Assembly (NCBI RefSeq): GCF_026571515.1 | Contig: NW_026859119.1 | Location: forward strand, 248,001 to 312,000 | Reading direction: 5' to 3' | Length of the DNA: 64,000 nt | Source: Ruditapes philippinarum | Lineage: Eukaryota | Shown here: piece by piece, positions 3,090 to 59,600 of the stretch | Layout: each line of letters begins with the position of its first letter | Position numbering within the stretch: position 1 is the stretch's first letter | Notes under the pieces: generated by a model | What the model saw: only the letters and a program-made list of their open reading frames with translations | The model's database searches: none | What the model was told of the DNA's origin: nothing | Translations under genes and position numbers: made by a program

Positions 3090-5590
3090 CTCTTGTTCCT
3101 GGGTCGGGTGGGGGCTGCGTTCATTGAACGCCGCCTTTCCTTGATGATCTTGTTTATCATATTTTTTTAAAATTACAATGCTGGAGCGAAAACAAAGTGG
3201 ATCATACAACTAGCAATTTATGAAACACAATGGTACATCTTTAAGATTGATTATTTCTCGTAGATTTATTTTTCAAATTAATTTATCTATAGTTACTGTA
3301 AATTACTGGATTAAGAATTGATTACCGCTCAAGCCGGTGCTAGGGGGCGTTAGCGATGTTGCATTTATACATTATCCCTCATGTACAGACTCAATCAAAC
3401 CGAGGCTGCAATTCTTATGTTATTTTGTTGTGATTAATGCTTCCGAGGGATCACTTTGTTTCCAGAATTTTGCACTTATTCATTATTCCTCATGTACAGA
3501 CTCAATCAAATATGAAAAACAAGATCAACAAGGAAAGGCGGCGTTCAATGAACGCAACCCCCATATGACCCAGCAACAAGAACCAATGGCAAGGAGCCCA
3601 GGCGGACCCCAAATATAAAAAGGACAGGGCAATTTTTTGCTGCAACCGTGTCTGCAAAAACCGTGTCTGCAATTCTTGTGTTATTTTGTTGTGATTGATG
3701 CTTCCGAGGGATCACTTTGTTTCCAGAATTTTGTTGAAAGGAGTGCAAACGGTAGTACCCTACAGTACCGTCAATCAAACCGAGCCTGCAACATTTTCAA
3801 TAATGTTGTGTTCCCCTTTGTGGGCCTATTATTATTTTCTTAATCAGTTACGAATTATTTATCATTTAATGATTAACCTGTCCGTGCTCTGTCTTTGCCC
3901 TGTCCTGTTTTTGTTTGGGGTCCGCCTGGGCTCCTTACCATTGGTTCTTGTTGCTGGGTCATATGGGGGTTGCATTCATTGAACACTACCTTTCCTTGTT
4001 GATCTTGTTTATCATATTTTGGATTCAACATTTTTTGAAAAAAAAAAATCTGGAAACAAAGTGATCCCTCGGAAGCATTTATCACAACAAGATTTCAAGA
4101 GAATTGCAGACTCGGTTTGATTGAGTCTGTACATGAGGGGATAATGAATATGTGCAACTCCCTCACGTCCCCTAGCACCGGCTTGAGCGGTACTTAATTC
4201 TCAACACTTAATAGTGCTGGCATCAATGATCCCGAAGGACCAGAAAAATATAACAACACTGAAGTGAAGTACCGGGCAACTTTTAACGGCTGCCACACGG
4301 CACTTGACACTTGTTGTTGTGAAATATGATAAGCAAGATCAACAAGGAAAGGCGGCGTTCAATGAACGCAACCCCCACTAAAGTACAAAATTCTGGAAAC
4401 AAAATGATCCCTCGGAATAAATCATTTTGCAGTGACAATTGCTATGTTTAGTCCTTCGGGATCATTGATTCCAAAAAATAACAAGAATAAAGATCAACAA
4501 GGCAAAGGCAACGTTCACAGGACGCCTCCCCCGGCTTTACCCCAGCTTCAACTTTAAAGTGTTGAGAATTGAGTACCGCTCAACCCGGTGCTAGGGGGCG
4601 TGAGGGATGTTGCACGTATTCATTAACCCTCATGTACATACTCAATCAAACCGAGTCTGCAATTCTCTTGTTATTTTGTTGTGATTAATGCTTCCGATGG
4701 ATCACTTTCTTTCCAGAATTTTGAACTGGCGCTTGTTGCTGGGTCGGATGGGGGCTGCGTTCATTGAATGCCGCCTTTCCTTGTCGATCTTGTTTATCAT
4801 ATTATATTTCACAACTGCAGGCGTCAAGTGCCATGTGGCAGCCGTAAAAAGTTGCCCCGAACTTCACTTCAGTGTTGTTATATTTTCTGGTCCTTCGGGA
4901 TCATTGATGCCAACACTTTATTGTCTGGTCCTTCGGGATCATTGTAGCCAACACTTTAAAGTGTTGAGAATTGAGTACCGCTCAAGCCGCTAGCCGGTGC
5001 TAGGGGCCGTGAGGGATGTTGCACGTATTCATTATCCCTCATGTACAGACTCAATCAAACCGAGTCTGCAATTCTTATGTTATTTTGTTGTGATAAATGC
5101 TTCCGAGGGATAACTTTGTTTCCAGAATTTCGACCTTGAGCAGGGTCCTTGTATAAATTAACTGTCACTGCAAACTAATTGAATTGATGAATACAGAATC
5201 CCTAAAGAAGCCCAACACGGCAAAATTGAAAATGTTGCAGGCTCGGTTTGATTGAGCCTGTTCATGAACGGTACTGGAAAGTGCAAGTTACCGTCCACGC
5301 CCCCTAGCACCGGCTTAAGCAGAATTCAACATTGAAACATGAAATAGCAAAATTTTGAATTTAGAAACATCCGCAGATGTGTTCATACGGCGGTATGTCA
5401 TATCATGTCCTGTTTAAATGTTGAATTCATAAGCCGGTGATAGGGGGCGTGGACGGTAATTTGCACTTGACAGTACCGTCCATGCACAGGCTCAATTAAA
5501 AAAAAAGAGAGAGAGAAAAAAAAAACAAGAATAAAGATCAACTTGGCAAAGGCAACGTTCACAGGACGCCGCCCCAGGACACACCCAAGT
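3090..5590. repeat. Scrambled mosaic of 3-4 sequence modules in both orientations
   Basis: Module ccgctcaagccggtgctaggggg...tttccagaattt at about 3325(+), 4049-4190(-), 4576(+), 4978(+). Module aagatcaacaaggaaaggcggcgttcaatgaacgc at about 3090(-), 3520(+), 3895-4019(-), 4334(+), 4733(-). Long inverted pairs at 3511-3632/3895-4019 and about 4207-4377/4750-4920. Confidence 0.85.
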
Positions 5591-7169
5591 GGACACGAGG
5601 GCGAAATGAGCGGTTCACGCAATGCGAAACAATATAAACAAAAACAGGCCCACAGGATTTATGGAATTGTTATGAAGTAGGTAGGGGGCAAAAAAACTCG
5701 CATATCTTGCAGCAATAACCTCCTTTACATATACTGTAATAGAGCCAATCAAACCTGGCCTCATACTTTAAACAGGATATCAATTTTTTGCAACATTTCG
5801 CTGTAGACAGTTTAATTTCTTTTTCCGGTAAGATTTATTGTTGTGAGATATTTTCTTTCCTAGAAGAAAAGGGGAGCAACTCTTGCAACAGAAGTTTAAA
5901 ATACGTCGCTTTTTCTTAATATACGGATCTAAAATCGACGCGTCGTATGTTAAACTTCTTTTCGAGGATTTTCTCAGATTATAATAATGAAGGTGATGAT
6001 AATAATAATAATGATATTACTTCTGGAATACTGATTTGCATCATTTATCCGAAAAGTAGTACATGTAATTACCGGTATCTGCTCGTTAAAGAGCATGATT
6101 TCGATAAGTTTACATGGGAGTTGATAACAATTAGTCGTCCTTTTACAACAGACAATCGGACAATAAAACACAAATTGACAAATTTTGTCATAAAGCTAAG
6201 ATTGTTTCTGAATAAAAAAACTCAAAATGCAATATCATGTTTGCAATGAAATGCAGGGAGAGAAAAGATATACAACCATGTAGGCAAACAAAGAGACAGC
6301 CGGTAAACGAAAGACTGACATAAATACAGTAAACGGAGGGACAATAGTTTATCCTTAGACAAACAGAAAACCTGATTACCGTTGTATCGAAACCCTATAT
6401 CTTGTGTCTGTCCTTTTAATAATGCAACAACTACGAAAATGCACCTGTTGATACTCTTCAAAAAGATCAACGTAGGGTATGAAAAGAATTTCTTATTAAT
6501 TCGGTGTACAGAATACTCGTGGAAAAGGCATAACAATCAATGCATACCAGTATATGACTGTCTAATACACACACAATAATGTATAATATATGTAGTCAGG
6601 ACACTAGACAACTTTTGGGGACAGGTACCCATACCCTCAGAAAGGGGAATTTTGCATCATTTTAACACAAAAAGGGGAATTTTGAGTCGTATATAAGTTA
6701 TTTAGATCTAGGGTATTACACTTACTTTTAAGCACTATTTCCTACCATTAGGCCTACTTTCAATAGCTAGTATATCTTTTACTATAGACCTAACCAAATA
6801 AAAGATATAACATGAAGTTGTTCTTAAAGTATCTTTATTCTTCATTGTTTTGAATTTCTTATTACACTCAGGACAACTGACTCAGACATAAATTTTTCTA
6901 GACTTGGAAGTGAAATGATTAATGGCCCTCTCAAGTTGATTGTCACTCAGTGAAGTTGCTCCTTCATGAACAATTCTCATAATGTTATCAAGTGTTTCCT
7001 GGCTCATTGATGATCTGAGAGGAGTGCAAATACTGTTCATCAAAGAAAACACCCTCTCAACACAGGCTGTTGATGTTGGAATCAAACTGGACAGTAGCAC
7101 AAAGTAAGACATTACAGGGAAGGTTTGCTGTAATATAGGCTCATCAGTCAACTTCTTCAGCAGAAACTG

Positions 7170-7182
7170 CACTAACAAAGTT
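7170..7182 (+). repeat. Left TIR of RAG-like transposon (CACTAACAAAGTT)
   Basis: Starts with the RSS-heptamer-like CAC, preceded by TSD AACTG; exact reverse complement of 17079-17091. Confidence 0.95.
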
Positions 7183-7199
7183 CTATGCTCCTGCGTTTA

Positions 7200-7255
7200 T
7201 GAATAAATTATGCAAATGAGCCAGGTTGAGCCGCCATGTTAGAATTTCGGTAAGC
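7200..7255 (+). promoter_or_regulatory. Putative RAG1L promoter and non-coding first exon next to the left TIR
   Basis: Octamer ATGCAAAT at 7210-7217, YY1-like CCGCCATGTT at 7231-7240, splice donor GTAAGC at 7250, acceptor ttattatttcag at 7782 just before the ATG exon. Confidence 0.4.
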
Positions 7256-8706
7256 GTGTTGGAAATCGATACCTGTTCGTTTTGAAAGCTCGTCCTAACT
7301 TACAGTTTCCTTGAATGTAGGAAAACTTGGTTTTGTTTGATTGCATATTGAATGATAGGTATTACAAAATAAATATAATGAAAATCGATCAATAAATAAT
7401 TGTATACGAGCGTTATAAAGTCAATTTAATTCGTCAGAACAATAAGGTTCTGTTGCAGGGGTATCGGTAAAAAGACTCCTTTTTTTCCCCGTTTTTGAAT
7501 TTATTTGAACACGGATACAATTATTCTCAAACAGGTTTATGAATATACTTTACGTTGCAACCGAGTTTACCGTGTGTCCATTCCTTATTTAAATTGTCTG
7601 AGAAGTTAAATCTGTTTGTTTACATGTAAATGTGTACCGTCATTTTGACCGACTGGAATAAAAACTACCATGACGGTGATAATACCGGATATGTAATGAA
7701 AATTACACCGTGTAGTGCAAAGTTTTGGACATTTCAATTTAGCACAGTAGAGCTTGTGACATATGTTATTTTATTATTTCAGAAGAAAACAAATATGAGT
7801 GAAAAACAAATATGAGTGATTCCCCTGTTTTCAAGAGAAAGAAGCAGGAAGGGGTAAAAGTCTAATTTTTTTCATAATTTTATGTCAGAAATAGTTTTTA
7901 AGTTTCAGAATGGTATCGTTCTAGAAAGTTTTATTTTTTTACTTTCATTGTAACGGATATTAAGCGATGTACTTGAAAATGCAGTGAATAATTATGATTT
8001 ACTCAAATCAATGAGGCAATTTAATACTGCAAGCTGGTCCTGGAGTGTCTTATAGTACTGATTTTAAAATCAACTTTACAAGTAAGTTCTGTATGACAAG
8101 ATGCCCCTTACGCACCCCCCCCCCCCCAAAAAAAAAAAAAAAATAAAAAAAAATAACCCTCAAAGATGAGGCTCTAATGGGGTGTTGAAATGTAAAAAAA
8201 TGCTATTCGATCTCTTAGAAGGTTTATAAGAATTTGATTATGTTGGCACAAATAATCAACTTTGTAAATTCTCTAACAACTAAAAATTTAGAAACTGGAA
8301 TTTTACAAAAATGAGGTACTTCACGGGACATAGTTATTTTCTTACATTATTATATTTTAAAGAAAGTTCAGAATTGTTATTGTCTCAACTCAATGTACAC
8401 AACTAAGTTCTTTATAAATATACATTGAAGGAAAACAAATAATTTGAAGATGAGGCCCCATTGGGATGTTGAATTTTAAGTTTATTTTCTCTCAGACAGA
8501 CAGACACACACTCCAGGGTCCTTTCATTTCCAAGAATTTGCTTGCTGGGTTTTTAAATTGGTTAAAGGGAGTGCTTTACCTTTTATTTGCTACACTTTTG
8601 TTAATAAAGCCCAGTCAGGAAACCTCAACTGTACAGCTTATATCTTGCTGCTTGTACACACTTGTATTCGGAATTGTAGTACTGTATTATATAATCGCCT
8701 AACTAC

Positions 8707-8912
8707 TACTTTCAGTGCCTCGGTAGTAAATTAATCCACTTATTAAAGATGTTGTAGCTGATTCACTTTCGGGTTTGGGGAGGGACGAACTCAGAAATTT
8801 TGATAAGAATGCCAAACAGTATATTTTTTGATCTCACGGTGAAAAAACCTTCGAATGATTAAAATCTATGATGTTTGTAAAGACGACCAAGTCCAAAGGC
8901 ACTGAGAGTGTT
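8707..8912. mobile_element. Small MITE-like insertion in the RAG1L intron
   Basis: Inverted ends actttcagtgcct (about 8708) and aggcactgagagt (about 8897-8910). Confidence 0.35.
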
Positions 8913-10770
8913 ACTATAATCACATTTACTATACTTGCTTTTGTGTAACTAGTAAATTAACATTAACTTTTAATACAAGGTGACGGACTCCGGTACATCA
9001 TTTTACTATTAAATGCACTGTTCAGATATCACTTATTCGAACTGATGTTATAACTTATTTCTAAATGTGACATCACCAATACGAATCTAGATATATCCCA
9101 TTCGAACAGGTGATAAATTGTATCCCTTTGAATGGCTTATAATACCTAATCATATTGATGATATCACACATAAGAATTAGCGTGATCATTTATTCAAATG
9201 GAACCACATATCTGTATAGATAATATACCCAGTACGATTACATGAGCTTAGCTTTTACAAATGTTGAAGTCATCTACTCGAAAATATCATTTATAGAGAC
9301 ATATGTATTATTTCACCCATTTTGAATTGGTGATATCCCGTATTTACATTGGTGATATAACAAAGGTGCATTTGGTAGTAAAAACAAGGCCCCATAATTG
9401 GCACGCTGTATATAATATATTCTTGCTTCCATTTTAATACACTTAACACAGTGTGCTCCTTTGTAATCATAGTGTCTCAACTTATAAAAATTGTGCTGCA
9501 GGTGAAAGGATTCATATTATCTATGCTTCTCTAATGTAATCTTGCATTATGAATGTCTAGTGTCATAGTTCAAATGATTTGAAAGGCTAAGTCTATCTGG
9601 GCAATTGAAGAAAAGATTAATGGCTATTATATAACAAGCCGATATTTGTTGTAAGTTGCTTTGTTTTATTTTCTAAGCCGAAATGTGTAGAGACACATGT
9701 AATGTTTTCTAGACTTAAACTGATCAGGTCATTTGAACTATTTAGTGCTTTGCTAGTTCTAGAGGTTATCCAAAAATTTATTTTTCATAGCTGGCTGTTT
9801 AACAAGACTCCCCCGAGCAAGAGTGTCTTCGTTCATCTCAAGATTTATTTGCCAGTAGCCCACCAGAGTCTGAGCCTCTTCATTCTTCCCAAGACTTTTT
9901 TGAATCAAGTTTAGAAGAGCCTTTGCCTGAACCCTCTGATCCTATGTGGCAAAACTATATAGATCCCAATAAGGGAGATTTTAATTACATAGAATCTCCA
10001 GTTCACTCGTCAACTAACACAGTCGTTCAAGATAACGAACTAGTTGAAAAGTGTAAACAGTTAGAAATTTGCAATGAAGATCTTCGCCGCGAAAATGAGA
10101 AACTTAAAACAGAAAATGTAAATCTTAAAACCGAAATAAAAAAAATTGGAGAAAAAATGCAATGCAGATTTGGTAGAGAAGAAAACTTAAAATTGAAAGA
10201 AAAGGTGGAAGAACTAACATTTATACTAAATTTGCAAAGTGATACACAAAGTTCTACACAATGAATGTACGTGAAGATAAAGATGAGATTCATCCAAAGT
10301 CACTCTGTTCGAGCTGTAGAATTAGATTTTACAAATTTAGGCAAATGGTGCAAAAAAAGAGAGAATTTTTCTTCCACCTTTCCAACAGTGTATAATTTTT
10401 TGTATGCACAGTGAAAAAATGTACTTTCTGTAAAAGTAAATCTAAAAGCAAACTTTTATCACGTTGCTCCCAAGATATTTTTTGCAGGTTCGTGCATTCT
10501 TGCAATGGTTTGACAACTGCTAATGTCTGTCCAGTATGTAGGGTGTTACATAACAGCGGAGGATGTTGTACCTTTGACAGGTCAACTGCTATTACTATAT
10601 GAAACCATGACAGTGACATGTAAATATACCGGCTGTTCCTGTATTTCAAACATAAACACATTTCAAAAACCACGAAGAAGTGTGTAGGTTTTGGTAAATA
10701 CCCAGCTCTTTTCCCCAGCTCTTCTAAAAGTGCGACTGCTGTTCCGAAAATACCCATTTATGACTGTTCT

Positions 10771-10974
10771 TTTTTTTGTTTGTTTGTTTTGGGTTTTAAC
10801 TGGTGGAGGAAGACCTCAGGTGCCCTTCCGTGCATTATTTCAGGCACGAACGGGCACCTGAGTAGAACCACCGACGTTCCGTAAGCTAGCTGGATAGCTT
10901 CCTCACATGAAAGAATCCAAAGTCCCTGTCGGGATTCGAACCCACAGCGGTGAAGGGCAAGTGGTTTGAAGTCA
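10771..10974 (-). mobile_element. 5'-truncated tRNA-derived SINE inserted in RAG1L
   Basis: 11-bp TSD ATGACTGTTCT at 10760-10770 and 10975-10985, B-box GGTTCGAATCC on the minus strand, (AAAC)n tail. Removal restores KIPIYDCSNKYLKQRRLKGL. Confidence 0.92.
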
Positions 10975-13865
10975 ATGACTGTTCTAATAAGTATTTAAAA
11001 CAGAGACGCCTTAAAGGTTTAAATGATTTGGTAACAACATTTTGTCAAACAAATAAAGAGGATAAAGGCGACGCACTGTTTTTCATGTTACAACAGCATT
11101 TGAAAGACAGTAATGACGTCCGATTTAATGACATAAATGATATATGTAAATCAACTGATTCGAAACTGACCCCAAGCCAGTGCCTTGCTTTGAGAGTCGA
11201 TACGCTTCAAAGTAAAACTCAATATAAAGCCCAATACAATTTCTTGAAGAAAAATGTTCGCAATCCTTTACAACCTCCAAGTGTTATCGACGATGTAGAA
11301 CTGTTATACACACCAAGTTCAACGCGTTATAGCATCGAAGGGTTCGATTTCACGGACAACTACTATCACACACCAGCAAAGGCAGTATATAAAACAGACT
11401 ACGCATGTAAATATACTTCATTTGAGCCACTTGATGTTTTGCAAGACTTTGATCGATTACTGCCAGAATTTGCATCGCCTAACATAAAAGGTGTTCGATG
11501 GTGCTACCCTGATGCGATAGCTGGTACTTTGAAAGAGCTTGAACCGAAAATTGTATCTGGTCTGAAGAAAAATAATATTGACCCAAACGATCCTAAAATT
11601 TTATTGATAACAAACATTAAAGATGGTGGTGATGGTCTCGGTGACGTGTCAATTCATAAGGAATTATCCGACCGGTTCTTGCCTGACAAAGCATTTAGAT
11701 TTTCTTTCTGTATTTTTAAAATTGAGGCTGCGGTTGGCGACAATGAACCAGTTGAAATTTTCCTAGAGGAAAAGCCAAATTCTGTTTAGAACTAATCGGC
11801 CTCTGTTAGAAGCAATATGCGACGAAAGCAATAGAGCTTCAAGCTTGGCGTGTCTTTTGCCGATTGAAAATGAAAGGTCCTTCATGAAAGATAAAATAAT
11901 GAGAGTACAACATACTAATGGATGGCGAAGACATTGTCTAAAATTTTTCAATAGTATGATTGACGAAAAGTTGGACAGGAAAGAGAGCGGTTTAGCAGAA
12001 AGTTGTTCAAGATACCTTTGCACACTTTGTGAAGCCACCACATTAAGCGCGGTTAAGGACCTTGGCACTTTCAAAATTACAAGAACGTACGATGAAACTA
12101 AAGAAATCGCGGAATATATGAGGGTAAATCCTGATAACCTTTCGCACGCGGCAATTGACAAGATTTCCAAGGAGTAAAAAAGGGCCCCTCTTTTAAAAGC
12201 TGAAGCGATTGAAAAGTGTTTAGATGCAACTCATGCTGACATAAACCTAGGGTCTTTTTCAAAAAGGTTTTGGTAAGGGAAGTTGCATGCATCACCCAGT
12301 GGGAAGCTACTGCGGACGTAAAGCCAATAATTAAAGACAGTGAGGTTAAATTTGATATGCATTTAAAAAAATACTATTGGCATAAACCCAGAGTTAATGA
12401 TGCCAGGTAATTATGCCAGGGTATTGTTTGATGAAAAAAATGAATCAAAAATACTTGCTTATATCACAGATGGAGAAAGAAGGAAACATTTGTCAAGCGT
12501 GCTGCAGAAATTTAGACTCATGAGGAAAGTGTACCGGGCTAAAGACCCAAAGAAGGAATGTCCTGGGGATGTATCCTCATACAAAGTTACAGCTATAGAA
12601 ATGGGCAGACTACTTCTGGCACATTTTGAATATGCTTCTTGGCCTAATTACCTACACAAAGTAATCGAACATGTTCAAGAAATAATTGAAAGCACAGATG
12701 GTCCAGGTACAGTAGGTGGTATAAGCAGCGAAGGGAATGAGTGTGGGAACAAGATTTTCAGACATATGCGGAAAAACATGGCAAGAAAGGGAAACACTCA
12801 AGGTGGTCTAAGGGACGTGTTGTGGTGTCACTGGCTTTACAGTAGTCCAGAACTTACAAGTCTTGCTTTAGTAACATTGAAACAGTCTAGATGTAGTTTG
12901 TGTTTGGAGGTTGGTCATAACAGACGTACTTGCGCGATGAACACAGTCTTTCCTGATGTTACTGTTCAAATTTGAGTGGCTATTTGTGAACTGCTATTAG
13001 TTGTCAAAAATATTAAAAGAGGTATCGAAAGTAATGTGTAAAATTTTAAGCATATTTTCATTAAAAATGACATTACCAATAACTGGAAACTGTGTACTTA
13101 GTTTAAATATAGGGGATATTGAAAAAGTAAGTAAAACATGTCTAGTACTCATTTTATTTAACTATGTAGCCATAGTAACCTTAATATTAACACTTGTGGT
13201 GGTTTGGTGTGGCTTGCATGAAAGCTAGCTAATATGCTTATATCCCAGGAGGAATAAGCAGACGTTTTTCTTTATCTCGTTTTTCTTATAATTATTCCAC
13301 TATATCATCAATATCATATAATGCATGTCTTGTTTCAGTAATATGTATTCGCTAAATATTTTGTGTAATCACTATAAAACATGTATGTACCCTTGTTCAG
13401 TTGGCTAATTTCTTACGAGATGATACGCGTGGTCTAGGTTGATATCTGTTATTCTGTTGAAATAAGCTGAAACAAATTGTAAAAACTACTTTTTGTGTCG
13501 CCTTTTCTGCGAAATTGCTGATAAATTCAGATGTTAAAAATAAGCAAAATATTTGGTTCATTCATTTACTGGTTTATCATAAATATACCATACTAAGTAG
13601 TTCAGCTTCGTTTATCAAAGTAAATGTTTTCAACCTAACAATAGCATAACGGTGGTGCAGATAGTATACAAGTATTAAAAAAGAAGTAAATGTTGTGTGC
13701 GCACTCAATTTATGTGCACATAATGCTGTAACATGTGCAAAAAAAATAATATTGCATCATGCATGCTACTTCTATATACCAGTAATTACTTATATGCATG
13801 TGCTACCGTATAATCACTGTATATATTAAATAAATTGTTATGGTTCATTTCATTTCTTTGTTGTC

Positions 13866-16281
13866 CTATTTCAATGTTTTCCTTTTTCTACCTTGACTTT
13901 TGCAAGTAGAGCATACATATTTCCCTTTAGGGACACCTTTTTCCAGGAGACCAACACAAAACTGGTGTAACCATCGTTTACATTTGCTTTCACACTGAAC
14001 CCATGCTATAGGTGAAATTTCTGGAGAGTCAGATATACAACATTCATCATTTAAGTCACATGGGCTAGGTCTCAATGGTTTGGTTGTATATGCAAATATT
14101 GTCTCCAGAACTCCTCCAACAACCATAATGCAGTCATCTGACAAAGTAAAACTTGAATTCCCAGCAGTACAGTACATAATATCTAACTCTGTACTCTCAA
14201 TACTCAACGACTGTAAGTCAATAGCATATAATTTGTTGCTGGCTGTTGGGGGATCCGTAATCTCTGCTTCCTTTTGAACAAACCCACCTGTGATATAGAG
14301 TATGTTATTAAATGAAACGACACTTTGATACGAAATAAATATGTCTTCTGGAATTGAAGCAGATATCTTATCTAGACTGTATCTACGCTCAGCTACACCA
14401 TGAAGTTTCAATATGACAAGTTCACTTAATGGAAGTCTTAGTCTTTCCGACGGTGAAGACTCTACCCCTTTGAATGACACACCTCCTGTTATGATCACAC
14501 ATCGTGTCCCTGAAATTGTAGCAATGTTGGCAGTATGGTAGGCTCTAGGCATTACATCCGGAATATCTCTGATTTTTGTCCAGCGGAGTGTTCTTGAATC
14601 AAACTCATAGAATGAACCGTCGTTGCAAACTTGAGAAAACGGACTGGCAAGACCAGGTTTATGTCGGTTGGGAAGAGATAATCCGCCATGCATCACTATA
14701 ACATTTTCACTCAACTGTGTAACGGTATGTCCAGTTCTGCCAACTGGTATATCTCCATTCTGTACTAATTTACTTAATGAAGTTTTTCCGGCAGGTTGAC
14801 AAATTGTACACTGATATTTGTTCCTAATAAAATCCAACTTGATAAGTTCATTGCTGGTTTCAAATGTGTCTGTATTTAATCCACCCATACAAAAACGGTG
14901 CGTGTGTCATACCATGCACTAACAGACTGTAAGCTTGGAAAATGGGCCCCCATTATGTTATCGAATCGCTGTATACTGCTGATATACGCATCATCAGGGT
15001 CATGGTTGAATGTCATATGAAATAAATCGTGTCCAAATTTCCATTCGGTTTCCTGAACTTTACGAGCACCACCAAAATATAGGAAAGTGGATTCACTGTC
15101 ATTAGACTTTAGTTTTATGCAACAGTGTCCTTCAGGGGGAAAGTAGTCATTATTTTGTAAATTTAGTTCGATTCTCTTTCTAATTGCTTTACCTTTTGTA
15201 GAAGATTTTGATTTAAATGGGAGAATCTAATTCCCCGGAAATAATTATTAACCTTTCAAATATAAAAAAGGCATCAAATTCACCTGAATATTTCAAAGAG
15301 AAGTTTCTAGCAATTAAGGAAGAACATGAAGATTTTATACATATTTATACGGACGGTTCAAAAGAAGGTTGCAAAGTAGGTGCGGCTGTGTTTGAAAATA
15401 ACTTTACATCTAGTATGAGGTTACCAGATAATGCATCAATTTTTACTGCTGAAGCAAAAGCTATCGATTTAGCATTGTCATACATAGCACAGCATACCCA
15501 CGATAAATTTGTGATATTTTCTGACTCGCTTTCTGTTTTAATATCCATTAAAAATAAAAAATCTGACAATATCATGGTAAAGAAACTTCTTTTGCGATTT
15601 CATGATATACTAAAAACAAAATATGTTAAATTATATTGGATTCCAAGCCATGTAGGAATACGAGGAAATGAAAAAGTAGATGCTTTAGTTAAACAATCAT
15701 TAAATTTTCAAAAAACTGACTTATTGTTACCTGCTTGTGATTTTAGACCGGCTATAAATAAACTCGTATCATCTGAATGGAAAGCAAATTGGGACAGTGC
15801 CGTTTTTAATAAACTTCACGATATAAACCCATCTCTTGATATGTCACCATCTCTATCTCTGTCAAACCGCCGTGATCAAACAGTTCTTCTTCGATGCCGA
15901 ATTGGACACACTAAAATTACCCACTCTTATCTTCTCACAAATGAAAATGCCCCTTTCTGTGTAGGTTGTAATGAAAATTTTACTGTCAAGCATTTTCTTC
16001 TTGAATGTCATGATTTTTCACAGGCCCGTAATAGATATTATTCTGTAAATTCACTCAAAGAACTTTTTAATACAATTCCATCAAAAAACATAATTGATTA
16101 TTTAAAAGAGATAAACTTGTATTCTAGGATCTAATGGGCTCATTTTTATTGTCATTTACAATGTTTTACATAATATTCTAAGCCTATTATAGCATTCGGC
16201 ACGATATGGCCAGTTATGTGTTGACGTGCCGTATAATCCAAACAAACAAACAAACCTCCAATCGGAATCTGCAAATGCCAT
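13866..16281 (-). pseudogene. RAG2L: RAG2-like protein (kelch propeller plus PHD finger), interrupted by a LINE and a 1-bp frameshift
   Basis: ATG at 16281 (MAFADSDWR) resumes at 15227 (ILPFK...DYFPPEGHCC...FLYFGGAR...VFVW), with a frameshift at about 14885 into GGLN. Kelch blades: GRTGHT..VMHGGL, PRAYHT..IITGGV, LYITGGF, MVVGG. PHD: PCDLNDEC...WVQCESKCKRWLHQFCVG...YVCSTC. Convergent with RAG1L. Confidence 0.92.
15228..16254 (+). mobile_element. 5'-truncated I-group (Nimb-like) LINE: RNase H domain, CCHC-like motif and 3' tail, inserted in RAG2L
   Basis: ORF 15217-16134 has YTDGSK, AEAKAI, FSDSLS, WIPSHVGIRGNEKVD and CVGC...TVKHFLLEC. The 3' UTR has a stem cggcacg/cgtgccg and an (AAAC)n tail. 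RAG2L codons rejoin across it. Confidence 0.92.
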
Positions 16282-16938
16282 GTTTCTCTAAAATTGTAAA
16301 AAGTTTACATTTATTAGATTATTTATTGTGACACAAGTTCCTTAATTCATACAAATTTATTTATTCTCAATTTCGAAATGATTCGTACAACTTTTATTAA
16401 TCGCTGTTAAGACTCGTTCCACATAGAATCAACCTCGAAAAAAGATAGGAGGCAACGTTTAATTATCGATATTGTTATGTCTTTCTTTAGAACACATGGC
16501 TATTTTTGCGATCAAACACATGTTAAAAATATTTCATGCACTTTCCGGGGTATGTTGACCCAAGTTATGTGGTTTTAACCAGTACTCCATGTATAATCAC
16601 CAAAGTTACAGGGAATTTTTGTACTACATCTAGATTAATTGGGCTTAGACTATTAAACAAACATATAATTTCAACTACTGCTGAAATGATCTCCAAATTT
16701 ATAATCCTGTTTATTGCGCATATATAGTCTGTTATGCAACTTCCCAGAAGGATATACTCGTATACGGAAAGTAACAATTTCTTTATCGCTTAACTACGTA
16801 TCTTTCATATAATTAAGACTAAAAGGAAATCAATCTTGATAGAAGATATACACGTTCTTAGGTCCCGAAATATTACCCCTGCAAATGGTGTGCATATTTC
16901 TACATACAAATTAATAATATCTTAAAATTAACACTTAC

Positions 16939-17078
16939 GTTGCTTGTCAGCAAAATTGAAACCGAAAGTAGCGGTTGTTCTAAAATTTAATCGAGTAAAA
17001 TGGGTGGGATTTAACCACCGCGCATGCCCTGTGCGAACGTATTGTTTACATCCGGTCGTAGCATAGGGTAAGAGTGCA
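16939..17078 (-). promoter_or_regulatory. Putative RAG2L promoter and non-coding first exon inside the right TIR
   Basis: Minus-strand donor GTAAGT at 16938 and acceptor tttacaattttag at 16288, 6 nt upstream of the RAG2L ATG. Confidence 0.45.
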
Positions 17079-17091
17079 AACTTTGTTAGTG
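17079..17091 (-). repeat. Right TIR of RAG-like transposon (AACTTTGTTAGTG on +)
   Basis: Exact reverse complement of 7170-7182, followed by TSD AACTG at 17092-17096. Confidence 0.95.
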
Positions 17092-20000
17092 AACTGTGGG
17101 TCTGATAAATCTGTTTCAGATGCCCTCTGCCTAAAAAGATATAGATTAAAACAGTTGGTCAGAGAGAAAGTTGCAGAATAGCTTTTTTTTAACTTGAAAT
17201 TCTATCAATATTAATGATAACATACAAAATATACCCCCATATTATATAAAAATTATACTAGAAATGTTATAAAACTAAAATGTTAATGCAAAAATTTCTG
17301 GATTCATCATTGTATTTAAACATAATAATTAATTTTATAATATTATCACTAGAAGCTTAAGATCTATATTAACATACTATATATGCAAAGACTTGTTCTC
17401 TAATCATAAAAAGGATATTTACACTGCTCATCATCTATGAGCCAGGAAACCAATGGCCATACAATTATTATGCATGATATGAATACAAATACACTCAGTA
17501 ACACTCACCTTGATAAGGGCCAGTGGCCATTTCACCTAAGTTCCTATGACTAGCAAAAAGTTCTAACATAAGAACTGATCAACATAAACTTCTGAAATAA
17601 CAAAAAAAGAATAAACAAAAATGCAACATTTCAATAGAAAATAAAAACTTACCAAACAAGAAAATGTGAAAATCCTTTGCTTCTGTATGTTTATTCAGAG
17701 TGAAAAGTATATAAAAGAACACTGTAGAAAATTAACTGGCTAACAATAAATAACACAAAATAACTATTTAAACTTTGATATTGCTTCAAATGAAACTGAC
17801 CAGACCACTTACTTCATTATAAACATCTGATGCTTAAAAGCACTGAACTCTCTTCTGATGATCTCTGCTGGAAATTCTGGCTGAGCAACAACATGATGTC
17901 CCATGAAAGTGTCCTGTTTCGCCTCACCATAGTGATCAGCAATGTGGCTAATAGAGGTCTATATCAAATGAAATTATGTGAAATAATTGTATTGCTTTGT
18001 GATTGAATAAATGGGTTCTAAACTCTATAAATAAAAGTTGAAAAAATTACTATTAGTATGAAAACTGAATATTCTTGATTATATTAAAATATATATTATT
18101 TGGAAAACAACAACTTTACAATTAAGTAAAACATGTTATCTATTTATTTATACCTGTCCATAGTCGCCCAATTCAAGGGGATTTGAAGGTACATGTCTCA
18201 TATCAAACACAGAGAAAGCACCTAAAGCTGGACTACAATGAAATGCATCTTCGAGCTCCTGTATCAAACTGTACACCATCGGCCTGGCAACTTCTTCTGC
18301 GAACTGTTGAATAGTGATTGGCCCTTCATCCCTGAAAAATCCAAAGATCATGCTTATGATGAAAAGACAAATATAACTTGTTCATAAACAGTTTAGTTTC
18401 ATTAAATTACAAATTACTTAGTTTTAATTCTGACAGTCACTTCAATTGTAATAAATAAAATCATGTCTAACAAGACTGTCTGAAATAATAACTATAAGTT
18501 TTTAATTTTTTGGTACAGTTATAAACCTTAAGTCTCTAAAGAAATTATGTTATATAATGAACTTTTTTACCTTAGCCTTCTTGCAAGTTCTCTCCTCTCA
18601 TCTATCAGATCCCATATCATTGGCAGTTTGGAGAAATAAAGTTCTTCATCATGCACACAATCACCAACTTGAGTTAATCTATTACTCAGATTTTCAAGTT
18701 CATCTATGAGGTTCTGAAGTTATAAACTTAAGGTTGATAATGTAACTGAAAATGTAAAGTCTATAAGAGAATGCATATCCATTTATATCTATTCAATTAA
18801 AAAAAATGTTTTAATGGAGTAATTGTCAAACATAACTTGATTCAATCGTAATTTGTAACTGTACATTTCTTTGTTGGCATTTAGTTATGTGATATGTATA
18901 TATGTACATCAATAGCCAAGTCAGAATGATAATTAAATTTGTGTGAAGATTTGACAGTAGTGCTTAACAAAGACAGGCATATTTTTGTTGAAATACTTAC
19001 TCTCATTTTCACGTGAAAAGTGAACATCACCTTGTAAGTAGTCACTGAATATGACAATGGGCTTCAGCATATCACATAGGGAAGCTGCTGCTGCTGCTAT
19101 TGTATGTTTGTTAAGTAGCATCTCCCTTAATCCGACTACTTCAGGGCTTCTTGATTAAGTCAATATGGAATCTATCGCATCAATTATGGGTTCATATCTA
19201 TCAAGGAGGCGGCTGCAAGCCCTTCCATGGGATAACCACCTTGTAGCTGCAGCTCTCAAAAACGTCAGCTTTGTCATGTTGTAGGCCTCCTGGACTTCCA
19301 TAAAGACCTGAAAATTTTATTTTTTGTAAAAATTCACTGATGGATCATGCAGGTATTGATTTAGTTAATAGATCTAAATGATTTCACATGAATACAATTG
19401 GCAGCTTGAATTTTTTAGAATTTAATCAATGTCATCATAATGACATTAACTTCCTTTTTTTTCATATTTCAAGTACAATATATAACATATTTTGCCTGAA
19501 AAAGTTTTTTTTTGTTTGAAATATCCGACAATTTATTATTATAATTTCATCTTGTATTCAAAACATGTCATTTAGTGACCAGTCACCTTAAATTATAATT
19601 GCATCTGATTTTACAATTTATTTTTTTCGGTTATTACACAAGCAAACAGTAGATTTAACATTCAAATTTAATTAATGGGTGAGCCTGATTGTTGGTAGGA
19701 CACTACTAAGTCTACTTACAGCAAATCTTTGGGCCGAAAATTTGAACAATTTCCAGATGGCAATCAGCACGGCATCTAGGTCTGAAAGAACTGGGTATTG
19801 CTTGACAAGATGACTTACACACAAGGCAAGTCTATGATTTCTGCAGTTAATGTAGAGTTGAAATGGGACCACATGTCTGAATCTGCGCTGTAATCCTGTG
19901 GATAAATTATAAAATAATATTCTAAAATACAGTATAAATACCAATGTCTTTATTTATTTAATTACTTTCATTACTGTAATAATGAATGTATTTACATTAA

Positions 20001-21672
20001 TGCCTTTATATTTTTATTAAAATAAAATAGTGTTATGATAAAAAATCTGATAGTTTAATGATGTCCTCTTACCTTTGTTGACCCCACTCATAACATTACA
20101 GCCATCAAAGCCTACAAAAATGGCTTTTTTGATATCGATTCCCTTGCCTTGAAGAAACCGTTCAATGGCTTCCATCAAACTTGCTGCATCAGTAGACACC
20201 ACTTGAATGATCCCAACAAAAACATCTGCCACTTGCTTTCCCTTTAGAAGTTTGATTATTACTGCAAATTGTTCTCGATTAGACTCATCGGTTGATTCGT
20301 CAGCCATTAGAGCATAGCATTTGGCATCACGGATTTGTTTAAGGATCTCATCTTCAAATGCAAATGCAATTGATTTGACAATGTCCTGGATAGAAGATGG
20401 AGAAGTGTAAGTCAACTTAGGATTTTCATTCACATACTGTTTTACCATTTCATTTTTTATATCAGAAGCCAAGAAGTTCTTGATAAAATCCTCAAGGTTG
20501 TCAGTGAGTGCCCATCTTTTCCTAAGCATGAAATGTGAAGTACGGAACAAGGTCTCCAAATATGTTTTGTTCAATGCCTTTTTACTTTCAACTTGTTTTG
20601 CCAATAATGGAAAAATCTTCTGTGTACCTTTAATTGATTTGGAAAGGTAGCTTTCTGAAGCCTTTAAGTGCTTCTCAGACTGGTCATGAGTTTTTAGACG
20701 TCTTGCTGGATGAGTGCCTAACTTAACTCCACGTGAAATATAAGCAGTTGTCTCATCAGCCAATGAACTACTATACATGAATTCACAGTACTTGCAGCAA
20801 TAACCTTCTTTGGATGCGCTGTAGTAAAGCCATTTGAAAGTCTTTTCATATTTATTGGTATCAAACAGTCGATTGTCAGGCACCATTACACATGCTTTTT
20901 TACTTGTACATATATCGGACCCATTGTCTGAATCATCAGCACTAGAAGTAGAATCATGAGAATGGGAGTCAACTAATACTGCTTTACGTTTTGGTGATTC
21001 TTTTTTAGAGACTGTAGTTGATGTTGTGATTTCAGACAAAGATAATGCATGCTGCTTAAATAAATTGTCAATTTTCTTACACTTTTCTGATGTTTTTGAC
21101 GTTATTCTTTTTGGCTTGCAGCCACGGCTGCAAGCCCATTTGTTTTGGAAAACTTGTTCCGGTTAGGTGGTTTCCTGCTTACATTTGTTAGTGCATGATT
21201 GAACGAGAAACCAACTGCAATCGTGCCAATCGCAACTTTTTGGCCCTTTCCGTCACTCTTCGGTTTAATGATTATAGCCGATGTAGTTCCGATTGCAATC
21301 GTGACAATTCGGGCGATTCCGTCATACTGCGGAATCAGACGAAGTAATATTACGGAAATCTAAGCTATTTTAGTTACTTCGGTAATCCCAGTTTGTTTAT
21401 ATAAATAGGATTTCTATTTTTACTTGATTTATCGGTTTAAACCGTAATAAATTATAAACGAAATTGTTACGTTTCAATTCTTTTTCAAGACGCAAAAGTT
21501 AGTTTCTTTTATAATTGTTTTTGTCTGTATTAGTTTTGTATATTAATTAACATAAATACCTTATACAATAGAGGATGGTTACGTCTCCAAAGGGTGGTCT
21601 TGCTTACCAAATCACAGAGAATATTAGTGCATGATCGAGTTATATTTAGATCTAATGAACGCAGTGAGGTAA

Positions 21673-36222: not shown

Positions 36223-37500
36223 TACCGGGTGTTTCATAATATGTGTCCCCATTTCAAATGCTTATAACATTTATATAATTCATTTAGATACACATTCAGT
36301 TTTTAAGAATGTTTTACACATGGAACAAAGTTTTACATAATGTATAATTCATAAGGATTTCTTACCTTTGATGTAAATATTCATGCTTTGAACTTTGACA
36401 GGATATACTCTAAATGACGTACTTTTTGCTCAATAACGGCGTCTACTCTGTGTAAAAAAATGCGAATCACTGAGGCACAAGTCTCACTACTTATATTTCT
36501 GATTTCTCTTGTTATGGCTGCTTTTAGGTCATCAGTGGTTTTACGCGAAGGTTTTTACATGTACACACGGTCTTTAAGATACCCCCAAAGAAAAAAGTCC
36601 AGAGGACTCAAATCAGGAGAGTGGGGAGGCCATTCAATGGCATTCTTCAACGAAATGAAGTTTTGGCCGAACGTCTCTTCCAACCATACCAGTACACCTG
36701 TGGCTGTATGTGGGTCAGCTCCATCCTGCTGAAACCATATATCGCCTACATTTACAACTTTCTTTCTCAATGCTTGCATAAACTTTCTTTTAATAATATT
36801 CAAGTAGCGATCTTCATTTACTGTTTCCTGTCCTCGTAGAAAAATGAACCAATAATTTCATTTGCACTTAACGCGGCCCACACCATAACCTTTTCTGAAT
36901 GCGGTGTTGTTTTTTTTTTTTTTTTTTTTTTTTTTTCTAAATAAATTCTGGCTTTTCAGAACCGCAGTACCTGCAGTTTTTCTTGTTCACCTGCGAATTA
37001 AGATAGAAATGTGCCTCATCTGAGAACCATATCTTGTCAGCAATACCACTGTTGTCGATCATCCATCTTGCAAAGGTCACTCTGCGCTCAATGTCGGTTG
37101 GTTTCAAATGCTGCATGATGGATATTGTATAAGGAGTGAGCTTCAAATCATACAGAAGCATTCTATATACACTAGAATGACTGGCAGAGTTAGTAATATC
37201 GCCCAGTACTTGTCTTACATACCTTTGTGGTGTTTCATTTATCACTGATTGCACTTGCCCAATATTTTCAGGAATTGTTACAGTTCTAGGACGTCCAGGG
37301 TTAGCATGCCTTCTGTCTTCAATCAAACCTGAAGCCTCATCAAATCTTTGTATAATTCTCTGCATGTTTTTCTTATTAAGATCCCTTAGATCAGGGTACC
37401 GGTATTTCTTTTTTTTATTGCTCTTATTACAGTGATAGGTGATTTACTTTCATAATAAAGTTTAACAACTTCCTTAACTGCTCTTTGGATGGCGCCATCT
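36223..37500 (-). mobile_element. Tc1/mariner element, DD41D (rosa/Visitor-type) transposase pseudogene
   Basis: TA-CCGGGTGTTTCATAATA terminus; GRPR, WFSDEAHFYL, and QQDGA followed by 41 residues to the D of SPLDFFLWGYLK. Interrupted by frameshifts and a poly(T) run at 36909-36936. Second TIR not found. Confidence 0.85.
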
Positions 37501-56641: not shown

Positions 56642-59600
56642 ATGGTTTCAAAGGTAAGTCGCACTTATTATATATACACTATATACACTTACATTTTTTT
56701 TTATTTTAATTAATTCAATAAAAGGATATTGACGAAATGTATGCAAATAATCATTGTTTCTATACACATAAGAGTACTTATGAAAATATATTTAAAATTT
56801 GGAATAGTAGTTTCTAATTACATGTATAATTAAACATTTATCGTAAAGGTATCACGGACACAAACTTTACCTCGGCAAGTGTTTTCGCTGAGATGATTTA
56901 GAGTTTTTTCATTAATGAATCCTTAGAATAGGTTGCCAGTTATTTAATATATAAAATCCAAGAAATGAACACCCGTTACGTACTTCCGTATTGGTATATA
57001 ATAAAAGTACTGTTGAACTGACCCGAAACAGCAATTAATGATGAAATGATTCCTTTTGGATCACTTGCATTATATATTACAAGTCACAACCGTTTCTTTT
57101 AATAATAAGTGCGATAAAGATTAATGATCTAAATCAATCAAATGTCATATAATTTTACTTCAATAATTAATTTATTTTTTTTTTCAGAAAATGATTTCGA
57201 ACCGCACAATTTTCTCTTGGGTGTTACTGATCAGTTTAATATGCTGCATCCTAATAGCTGATTTGGAATGTAAGCGTCATTCAAAAGCTGAGAAAAAATT
57301 CTCAGAGGAAGATAGCAGTTCATTTTCTAACAACAAAAATGGCGATCAACTTTGGTCAGATGAAAATAACCAAGAACGAGTGAACGAAAAGCATCCGAAG
57401 CCTAAAAAAGAAAGTTCAGAAAGCATATATTCGACAATATCAGAGCAAAGGAACATCAAAGAAACAGATTCAAGTTCTGAAAATACCAATAGTAATTATC
57501 TTCAAGATAAAGATACTGATAATGACAAAAGCGCTGAAACGACTTTAAGAGAAGATTCGAGCGTCAGAAGAAATCAATTCAAACCAAAGTATTTGGAAGA
57601 CGAAGAAGATTACAAAACCTTTGAAAGAAAATCTTATTCGTCAAATCCAGAAAATAAAAATGATATTGGCACTGAGAGCAGAAGAACACTAACTGAGGAA
57701 GATTTCACCAGCCAAGAAAGTGAAGCAACGTCAAGAAACAAAGAACGAGAGACTAATGAATTGAAAGTAAGCGAGCAGCAAGAAAAACAGGGAAAAGATA
57801 GAACGGAGCCGTCTGATTCAAAATCAAGCTATCATGAAAACGATGTAGACAAAACTGAAAGGAGTATGGGTAAGACCGGGAGTGAAAACGAATACTATGA
57901 AAATAGTAGAGGTAAGACCGGGAGAGAAAACGAATACAATGAAAATAGCAGAGATAAGACCGGGAGTGAAAACGAATACAATGAAAATAGTAGAGGTAAG
58001 ACCGGGAGTGAAAACGAATACAATGAAAATGGTAGAGAAAAGACCGGGAGTGAAAACGAATACAATGAAAATAGTAGAGAAAAGACCGGGAGTGAAAACG
58101 AATACAATGAAAATAGTAGAGAAAAGACCGGGAGTGAAAACGAATACAATGGAAATAGTAGAGAAAAGACGGGGAGTGAAAACAAATACAATGAAAATAG
58201 CAGAGATAAGACCGGGAGTGAAAACGAATACAATGAAAAGAGCAGTATTAGTATGTCAAAACATTCCAATGGGGATCTTAACTATCAAGGTGACAGGAGT
58301 TCGGAACAGAAACATACATTGACAGAAGACAGCAGTGGAGCATCAGGAGAAAGCATTCAAAAGACGACCGAAGCCAAACCAATAATATTAAAATATCAGA
58401 ACCCATTGTCTTAACGCCAAATGATAATGTTGATTATGATAATAACGTTTTGTACTCAGAAAACAGCGTTTTTAGCACAACCGTAAGTCCTACAAAATAC
58501 CAGACCTCTTTATCAAATATGTTATCCACAGCAACAACAAACAAACCAAGCATATCATCGACAGGAGTTATAAATGCAAGACAAGATAAGAAAGAGGAAA
58601 CTGTTGACATATTAAATACTGCACCGGGAATAATAATAAAACAGCCATTTACTGGTCGTAAAAAGTGCATTGAAAGAACGCCTCCTTGTTGTGTTCCCGG
58701 TCAGGTTGATATAAATCTTGGTGAGTGTCATGTTGGCTTTTCTTCTATGCAATGTTTCTTTTTTTTGTTAAGTAGTTCACACAAACGTAAATTTACATAA
58801 ATAAATGTTTGAAGGTCTGTGGTGAGGAATAGGCATGATTTTCAGTTTTAAATAGATTTCGATAAATACAATAAAAATGTGTTTTACGATGTTCTTTGAT
58901 GATGAAAAAAACATGATTTAGAAAGTCGTTTTTTTCTCAACGCGATCGGTAATTTCCACCGCCATTTTAACTGATGACGTTTCAATATCCCTACTTAATT
59001 TTCTTAACCCTCATGTCAGTTATGCTTATGTGTAAATGCATCAAAATATCTATTGTATTGTACAATTGTTTTTTCTTAACGAGTATTATGTAAAAAGAAT
59101 AAAGATTTTCTTTTGATATTTAAGTGCTTTACGCGAACTCGACCATAAATGCAGCTGATTTTTAAACTCAAATGGCCATTCAATTATTCAACTGGATTGT
59201 AAATTAACAAGGAAAGAGACAAATAAACAGACAAAAACATCCTCAAGGCTTAAATTTCTGTTACAAACCATGCAATTTACGGCTTTATAGACAGATTTTG
59301 ATGTATATCAAATTTTACTAGACGTCTATTTTCTGATTTGGTATTCTTTCTAAGCTAAGTATTGTCTTCATCACTTTACCCTTTGATTATTATCTACACC
59401 ATAATCTCTTTATAGTAATTCATCAAAGATCTATTTGTGCAATGTTTTGAACAATTCTGTCACATGATCTTTTGTGTGTGTATTTAGGTACAATTAATTA
59501 TAAAGCACGGGTAAATGGCGAGTTGGATGGTGTTAGTGCAACAGTATCTACAAAGCCACAGAGAGCATACAAACGATGTAGCAATTCCGCTGTAATTAAG

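Follow-up and report, generated by a model that had tools for sequence, protein, structure and literature searches.

The window (the whole stretch of DNA analysed here, 64,000 nucleotides) contains a complete RAG-like (RAGL) transposon that spans positions 7170-17091 and is bordered by 13-bp terminal inverted repeats (TIRs) and a 5-bp target site duplication (TSD). Both termini read CACTAACAAAGTT (5' TIR, 7170-7182, plus strand, the left end of the element; 3' TIR, 17079-17091, minus strand) and match at 13/13 bp, and the TSD AACTG occupies 7165-7169 and 17092-17096. Homology to two sister contigs breaks off exactly at 7170 and 17091. Three full-length copies were found, each with its own 5-bp TSD (AACTG, CAATA and CGCCT); the two sister copies are 98% identical to the window copy, and the core divergence among the full copies is 1.2-1.9%. 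The element lies in the last exon of an older hAT transposase gene on the minus strand (6882-21162; Pfam DUF4371 and hAT dimerisation), the reading frame of which is continuous across the empty site, that is, without the RAG element. Divergent, broken RAGL subfamilies (48-56% identity) are also present in the genome. Elsewhere in the window, a broken Tc1/mariner-type transposase (36555-37443) and a dense cluster of nested inverted repeats belonging to an abundant family of MITE-like type (3091-5500) were observed, as was a secreted-looking host protein with tandem repeats and a single homologue, in Ruditapes (57167-58800).

The left end of the element (7200-7240) shares a GAATAAATTATGCAAAT block with the left end of the Pinctada element 3145, and within it lies ATGCAAAT, the octamer motif. 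The block is followed by a putative YY1-type site, CGCCATGTT (7232-7240, plus strand), which matches the motif CGCCATNTT described for the ProtoRAG TIRs in the accessible part of PMC7481187.

RAG1L (10261-12975, plus strand) and RAG2L (13139-16993, minus strand) are convergent, tail to tail. RAG1L, identified by Pfam RAG1 and RING and by PDB matches, comprises an N-terminal zinc finger, a RING, the core and a CCGHC tail. The RAG2L transcription unit was delimited by RNA contigs aligned to a sister copy and mapped to the window, together with Pfam and a PHD pattern: a non-coding exon reaches to 16939, an intron occupies 16938-16288, the ATG lies at 16281, the stop at 13866 and the poly(A) site at about 13139. 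Its protein has a kelch propeller and an invertebrate-type PHD without the acidic hinge. A GT-AG splice into RAG2L is present in X17 (presumed RNA) and X18 (RNA-Seq on record); in X17, RAG2L is a continuous ORF with a poly(A) tail and no indel listed, and 8/9 variants common to X15-X17 carry the base of the window. RNA cover of RAG1L is mainly of its 3' part, and ORF0, the third ORF described below, and the 5' two-thirds of RAG1L had no RNA joint or clear cover in the four runs, which does not imply silence. At 12439 (L154:3857), RNA contigs from two studies depart from RAG1L and enter an identical foreign 30-mer that is absent from G000, perhaps because of a rearranged copy or a chimeric transcript.

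The preliminary description had proposed that RAG1L carries residues of the transposase rather than the domesticated type, and the alignments agree with these assignments. Val occupies the position of mouse E649 (codon 11784-11786; query 31-291 matches 405-648 of mouse RAG1, so that Val292 corresponds to 649), Met that of R848 (codon 12397-12399; query 4-164 matches mouse RAG1 841-1000, placing Met at 848, and printed RAG1 alignments are gapless before it) and Cys that of S963 (codon 12742-12744, in EGNEC from 12730, aligned to the Ser after E962). The CX2CX3GHX4C tail (CTT*) is CSLCLEVGHNRRTC at 12892-12933, and the GRPR/K motif is absent from RAG1L. In a 70-row alignment the three columns are those of BbeRAG1L V751, M949 and A1064, and the register holds; a register shift was ruled out by mouse RAG1 (6oem), the BbeRAG1L PDB chains and this alignment. 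Since the Val649 codon adjoins a +1 frameshift of the window copy (11785), it needed checking, and a frameshift artefact was ruled out, as both sisters read KPNSVRTNRP in frame. The statement that the DDE triad and zinc ligands are intact holds residue by residue: the catalytic D-E-D-E, H795 and the four zinc ligands are all present (catalytic positions D 11631, E 11824, D 11962, H 12232 and E 12739; zinc ligands CTLC at 12019 and HKVIEH at 12655). It fails for the assembled copy, whose catalytic residues fall in four different frames.

The combination of Val649, Met848, Cys963 and the CCGHC tail is the published default of invertebrate RAG1L-B and nothing new. According to the accessible parts of Martin 2020 (PMC7204232), Val649 is found in most protostome RAG1L, a hydrophobic residue 848 in virtually all of them and the CX2CX3GHX4C tail in essentially all, while those of Martin 2023 (bioRxiv 2023.08.20.553239) give Ala, Gly, Ser or Cys at 963 in families B-D; for the roles of R848 and E649/S963, these two papers cite Zhang 2019. 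Among the 68 homologues in our 70-row alignment, Val is found at 649 in 54/65 rows with a residue there and Met at 848 in 51/55 rows; position 963 is Ala in 30 rows, Gly in 13, Cys in 5 and Lys in 1 (Ala/Gly/Cys in 48/49), and the CCGHC tail is present in 44/49 rows that reach 963. The flagged residue pattern is ordinary because it is both the published default and the majority state among these homologues.

The further proposal that the enzyme was an active transposase is borne out by the TIRs, TSDs, sister copies and MITEs rather than by the residues. Searches with exact end patterns found 86 left ends and 78 right ends, and DNA searches returned 113 and 110 candidates. Most candidate ends belong to MITEs of about 750 bp, which consist of the first 569 and the last ~180 bp of the element and form a family of ~90 or more copies. 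Among the 86 paired elements at the fetched loci, which include the three full copies, the 5-bp TSD is perfect in 81, has one mismatch in 2 and is lacking in 3; two of these last three are halves of one tandem dimer with a matching outer duplication. In this dimer (G000:C10559:204322-205832; L032, L094), TGCTA-[MITE]-CAACG-[MITE]-TGCTA, the outer duplications are equal and the inner spacer is different, and therefore it likely jumped as a composite unit. The MITEs diverge from the majority sequence by a median of 2.0% (59 copies) and have a private load of 0.55%; the low values indicate that the enzyme moved recently.

Pyrimidine-purine steps, which bend easily, occupy T1-T2/T4-T5 of the targets in 78/162 cases, against 42 ± 5.5 in within-TSD shuffles (0/5000). 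Their positions coincide with the two target kinks, 3 bp apart, that the accessible part of PMC12337333 describes for the mouse RAG strand-transfer complex. The 81 natural insertion sites show which targets a Met848 enzyme uses in vivo, a signature consistent with kinked-target structures. Target GC is 0.49 versus 0.33, and GC-rich targets are known for Transib and RAG (PMC1131882, in the part accessible).

When footprints of single-end cleavage were sought, 17 unpaired ends were obtained, none of them diagnostic: 3/17 pair if mutated TIRs are allowed, 4/17 lie at contig ends, and 5/17 are left ends in which the MITE body is cut or interrupted after 418-702 bp. Five MITEs from this set of 17 (G000 C4, C2309, C12849, C13209 and C15374) have the same altered left TIR and near-identical TGCCC flanks, and therefore likely represent one insertion amplified inside another repeat. 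The search for precise TIR-TIR joints found none, its sole match having a 5-bp spacer. Fixed insertions are two-ended almost throughout, which is neutral on uncoupled cleavage.

The products establish cut-and-paste by RAG1L/RAG2L, and its details can be modelled on BbeRAGL and mouse RAG. A RAG1L2-RAG2L2 complex would grip each TIR via the CCGHC tail, the DDE site would cut by the nick-hairpin route, and the complex would capture a doubly kinked target, as permitted by Met848. With Val at 649 and Cys at 963, the Glu-Ser hydrogen bond would be lost, and for this reason single-end cleavage by an enzyme of the window type is likely by analogy. The relaxed coupling suggested in the preliminary description is likewise best seen as an analogy to BbeRAGL only.

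In the assembly, the RAG1L of the window copy is broken by small indels, two deletions and a SINE-like insertion (10760-10985, minus strand), which is absent from the sisters and high-copy in the sequencing runs; the SINE has its own 11-bp duplication, ATGACTGTTCT, and looks real. A 5'-truncated LINE piece (15227-16254, plus strand; RNase H by Pfam, (AAAC)n tail) interrupts RAG2L in the window copy only. The sister copies are each broken at other places, so that all three full copies are broken and no unbroken RAG1L was found in G000. These lesions, together with RNA contigs that cover RAG2L and little of RAG1L, would fit a long-dead fossil of an extinct family, the RAG2L transcript being residual or heading for lone domestication. 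However, the region 9791-12975 holds 13 small private insertions, 11 of them beside an identical base, versus 2 small deletions, and because of this excess most frameshifts of the window copy look like assembly errors rather than marks of a fossil. Moreover, among the matches listed, the contigs of four runs from four studies lack seven indels, a 120-bp deletion and the LINE, with the reservation that run contigs merge copies and that the presence of the window insertion in the sequenced animals is an assumption; the stop at 9800 in the window reads G in all four runs. Two MITEs with zero private changes also speak against an extinct family. We regard the fossil explanation as a serious one that falls somewhat short of even odds.

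The feature that sets the element apart is ORF0, an ORF of ~170 codons upstream of RAG1L. Its predicted short exon (7783-7853, plus strand) has an ATG at 7812, MSDSPVFKRKKQEG, and a phase-0 donor GTAAAA, and its main exon (9791-10264, plus strand), delimited by an open frame of 156 codons in both sisters and by homology to family II, contains an acidic/Ser-rich stretch, the motif MW..Y..PNKGD[FY]N and a coiled coil. The peptide of the short exon matches the N-terminus of the homologue P0085, which begins MDEASDSPIFKKRKR (0/5000 shuffles), and is the best window across the whole upstream region against it; four other homologue N-termini that were tested did not match the predicted exon. Family II, the RAG1L core of which is ~55% alike, has a homologous ORF0 at the same place, and in each subfamily a short exon is predicted upstream, with an ATG, VFK and a phase-0 GTAAAA donor.

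The ORF0 proteins of families I and II are 37% identical over 139 aa, with an alignment score of 178, none of the 3 x 2000 shuffles scoring above 105, and the other eight frame pairs score at most 35. With pS 0.76 and pN 0.40 at saturated synonymous sites (0.80 and 0.29 in the core), and a protein-guided alignment that favours such a pattern, the substitutions argue that ORF0 is under purifying selection at the protein level. From this selection ORF0 would be translated.

A profile search of 1.84 billion representatives returned 15 matches, 14 of which are small proteins (87-160 aa) that combine the MW..Y..PNKGDYN motif with a coiled coil. One library match, P0084, was dropped as a chance coiled-coil match, and P0070, nearly identical to the family II sequence, was not counted as independent. 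For two homologue clusters from other genomes, one of each subfamily type, 4/4 contigs are equal in size to RAG1L-bearing contigs, which is evidence of the same contig rather than of adjacency; for the remaining homologues, no link to RAG1L was found among the 14/68 RAG1L clusters looked up. The motif was absent in frame from all examined proteins longer than 300 aa, RAG1L matches included. Pfam gave sub-threshold coiled-coil matches only, the ESM Atlas gave only matches under 0.9, and a metagenome scan for loci gave one weak match that was uninformative. For one homologue AlphaFold predicted a disordered start, a short helix at the motif and a single 73-residue helix (pTM 0.36); the basic N-terminus and the coiled-coil model suggest that ORF0 may be a nuclear oligomer.

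The ORF0 stop TGA (10262-10264) overlaps the RAG1L ATG (10261-10263), and in family II a TAA lies two bases before the ATG; the junctions are CAATGAATG and AAGTAATTATG, both in the -1 frame. One spliced mRNA could carry ORF0 first and RAG1L second; RAG1L would then depend on stop-start reinitiation and be produced at only a fraction of the rate of ORF0, and the small coiled-coil product would act in the nucleus. Translation of RAG1L through such reinitiation comes close to an even chance in our estimate, if slightly under it. Neither a -1 slippery heptamer joining ORF0 to RAG1L was seen at the junctions nor UGGGA, a TURBS-like motif, within 120 nt of either. In bicistronic stop-start mRNAs (calicivirus, influenza B and SART1; PMC10275272, in the part accessible), stop and start likewise overlap (AUGA, UAAUG) or lie a few bases apart, out of frame; in contrast, the present case concerns a DNA transposon that lacks the TURBS-like motif, and reinitiation is proposed from geometry.

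Alternatively, ORF0 may be real while RAG1L has an mRNA of its own, spliced to an alternative 3' site just before the ATG from a shared promoter, with the stop-start contact incidental. Both families have AG dinucleotides in the last ~25 nt upstream of the RAG1L ATG, that of family II being a strong TCTTGAACAG; in the Pinctada elements an acceptor immediately precedes this ATG, and the junctions lack the TURBS-like motif. Yet the candidates in family I are weak AAG sites, the upstream exon holds the ATG of ORF0, so that an upstream ORF would remain even with the alternative acceptor, and in both families the ORF0 stop lies at -4 to +2 nt from the RAG1L ATG with the same frame offset. We treat the alternative acceptor as a possibility that is less than an even chance but closely rivals reinitiation.

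ORF0 might also be a general accessory module that precedes several unrelated mollusc transposases and has no RAG-specific role. An unrelated DNA transposon-like unit with 43-bp inverted repeats (G000:C3252:11401-16075; L166, L167) holds a short ORF0 homologue (12007-12252), a coiled-coil frame that is broken, and a DDE-like ORF of 532 codons, the first 321 of which have no Pfam match. The score of this homologue was reached by 0/3000 full shuffles and by 0-2/3000 local shuffles, and such short-type homologues also occur in the library. A shorter homologue before an unrelated transposase means that ORF0 is perhaps not RAG-specific. The same module reading draws on three published oyster elements (C. 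virginica 0007, P. imbricata 3145 and 3975): the six-frame displays of Martin 2020 File S2, viewed by eye in the part accessible, have no ORF0-like frame upstream of RAG1L, and NKGD occurs once in that file, in an unrelated context. ORF0 is therefore dispensable for RAGL transposition. Against an unspecific role, the long-type ORF0, with a second coiled-coil block ending TQ, has a RAGL context wherever the context is visible and is kept under selection across two RAGL subfamilies, and we consider the general module unlikely. Since ORF0-bearing rows are sister to a Pinctada row in both subfamilies, either Pinctada lost ORF0 on two occasions or the subfamilies came to share it later. At G000:C8870:183365-186200, the 5' part of a family II RAG1L is present in two head-to-head copies with an inverted fragment of ORF0 between them.

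According to our analysis, the window element is a complete family-B RAG-like cut-and-paste transposon, likely of a venerid clam, with standard transposase residues, dozens of recent insertions and a conserved ORF0 that likely throttles or assists transposase production, a reading to which we assign a probability of about 0.75. A bolder reading, put forward tentatively and rated clearly below even, is a mollusc RAG branch with three genes, in which a nuclear coiled-coil protein translated first, with RAG1L made by reinitiation, would be a brake or an extra subunit and the family would still be active in living clams. V(D)J recombination descends from RAG transposons, for which a layout of two genes has been described, and the known RAG brakes (R848, the RAG2 hinge and host YY1) all work either directly on the two encoded proteins or by way of them. 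A conserved third gene tied to the start of the transposase, if true, would tame RAG in a different way, and a family still active in living clams, if true, would offer a natural in vivo model of RAG transposition. A young, partly expressed RAGL family is open to direct experiment.

The conserved ORF0 is what makes the element new with respect to published RAGL, the residue finding being already known. A third RAGL gene was not found in the accessible parts of Martin 2020 and its supplements, Martin 2023, bioRxiv 2026.01.24.700457 and the text of Tao 2022 (PMC9435367) or in wider paper searches; the supplement of Tao 2022 (786 RAG1L homologues), the bioRxiv supplements, Repbase and subscription papers might mention it or venerid elements.

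The nearest named proteins to RAG1L are those of Mercenaria (82%) and Pinctada (64% in the core), and in a quick tree RAG1L groups with both among BbeRAG1L-like rows, apart from the sole A-type row; the careful tree has 23 rows and no A-type row. Recent horizontal transfer, for which the 82% identity to Mercenaria and the young burst might speak, is improbable: one of the host genes in the window shares 83% identity with a protein of Ruditapes philippinarum, so that the host is likely a venerid like Mercenaria, and the tree joins the venerid RAG1L sequences as sister to Pinctada, on which grounds the descent of the element is likely vertical.

The closest published counterpart of this family-B transposon is Pinctada imbricata RAGL_B Bivalvia2 (PimRAG1L_B_Biv2_3145; PMC7204232, in the part accessible), to which the nearest Pinctada protein was linked through N-terminal likeness, by eye. 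Both have convergent RAG1L and RAG2L, a 5-bp TSD, a CACTAACAAA TIR start, the GAATAAATTATGCAAAT block, ZDD/RING, V649/M848/CCGHC and non-autonomous derivatives. The distance from TIR to RAG1L ATG is 0.8 kb in Pinctada 3145 and ~3.1 kb, holding ORF0, in the window element, which also differs in its large MITE family, Cys963 and likely venerid host. ProtoRAG of Branchiostoma belcheri (PDB 6B40) resembles the window RAG1L at all catalytic and zinc positions, in V751 and M949, in CTT*, in the lack of GRPR/K and in a YY1-type motif near the 5' end, with 50% core identity. However, its A1064 is Cys in the window RAG1L, the window RAG2L keeps the PHD, and ORF0 is unreported in ProtoRAG. The window TIRs fit those of RAGL-B and ProtoRAG, which start with CAC and are conserved over ~13-15 bp, whereas the third conserved ORF departs from their described two-gene layout. 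Transib is a single gene without the RAG1-type N-terminal RING and without RAG2L, both of which the window element has.

With RAGL-A (Ptychodera and ophiuroids; Martin 2023, in the part accessible) and jawed-vertebrate RAG1/RAG2, the element has in common the core fold, the DDE site, the tail-to-tail pair and heptamer-like CAC ends. It lacks the E/Q649, the GRPR/K NBD and the RAG2 acidic hinge of RAGL-A, as well as the R848, E649/S963 and acidic tail of the domesticated jawed-vertebrate RAG, and it has TIRs. Among the homologues, P0069 is a RAG1L with E649, K963, GRPR and M848, like published family A proteins.
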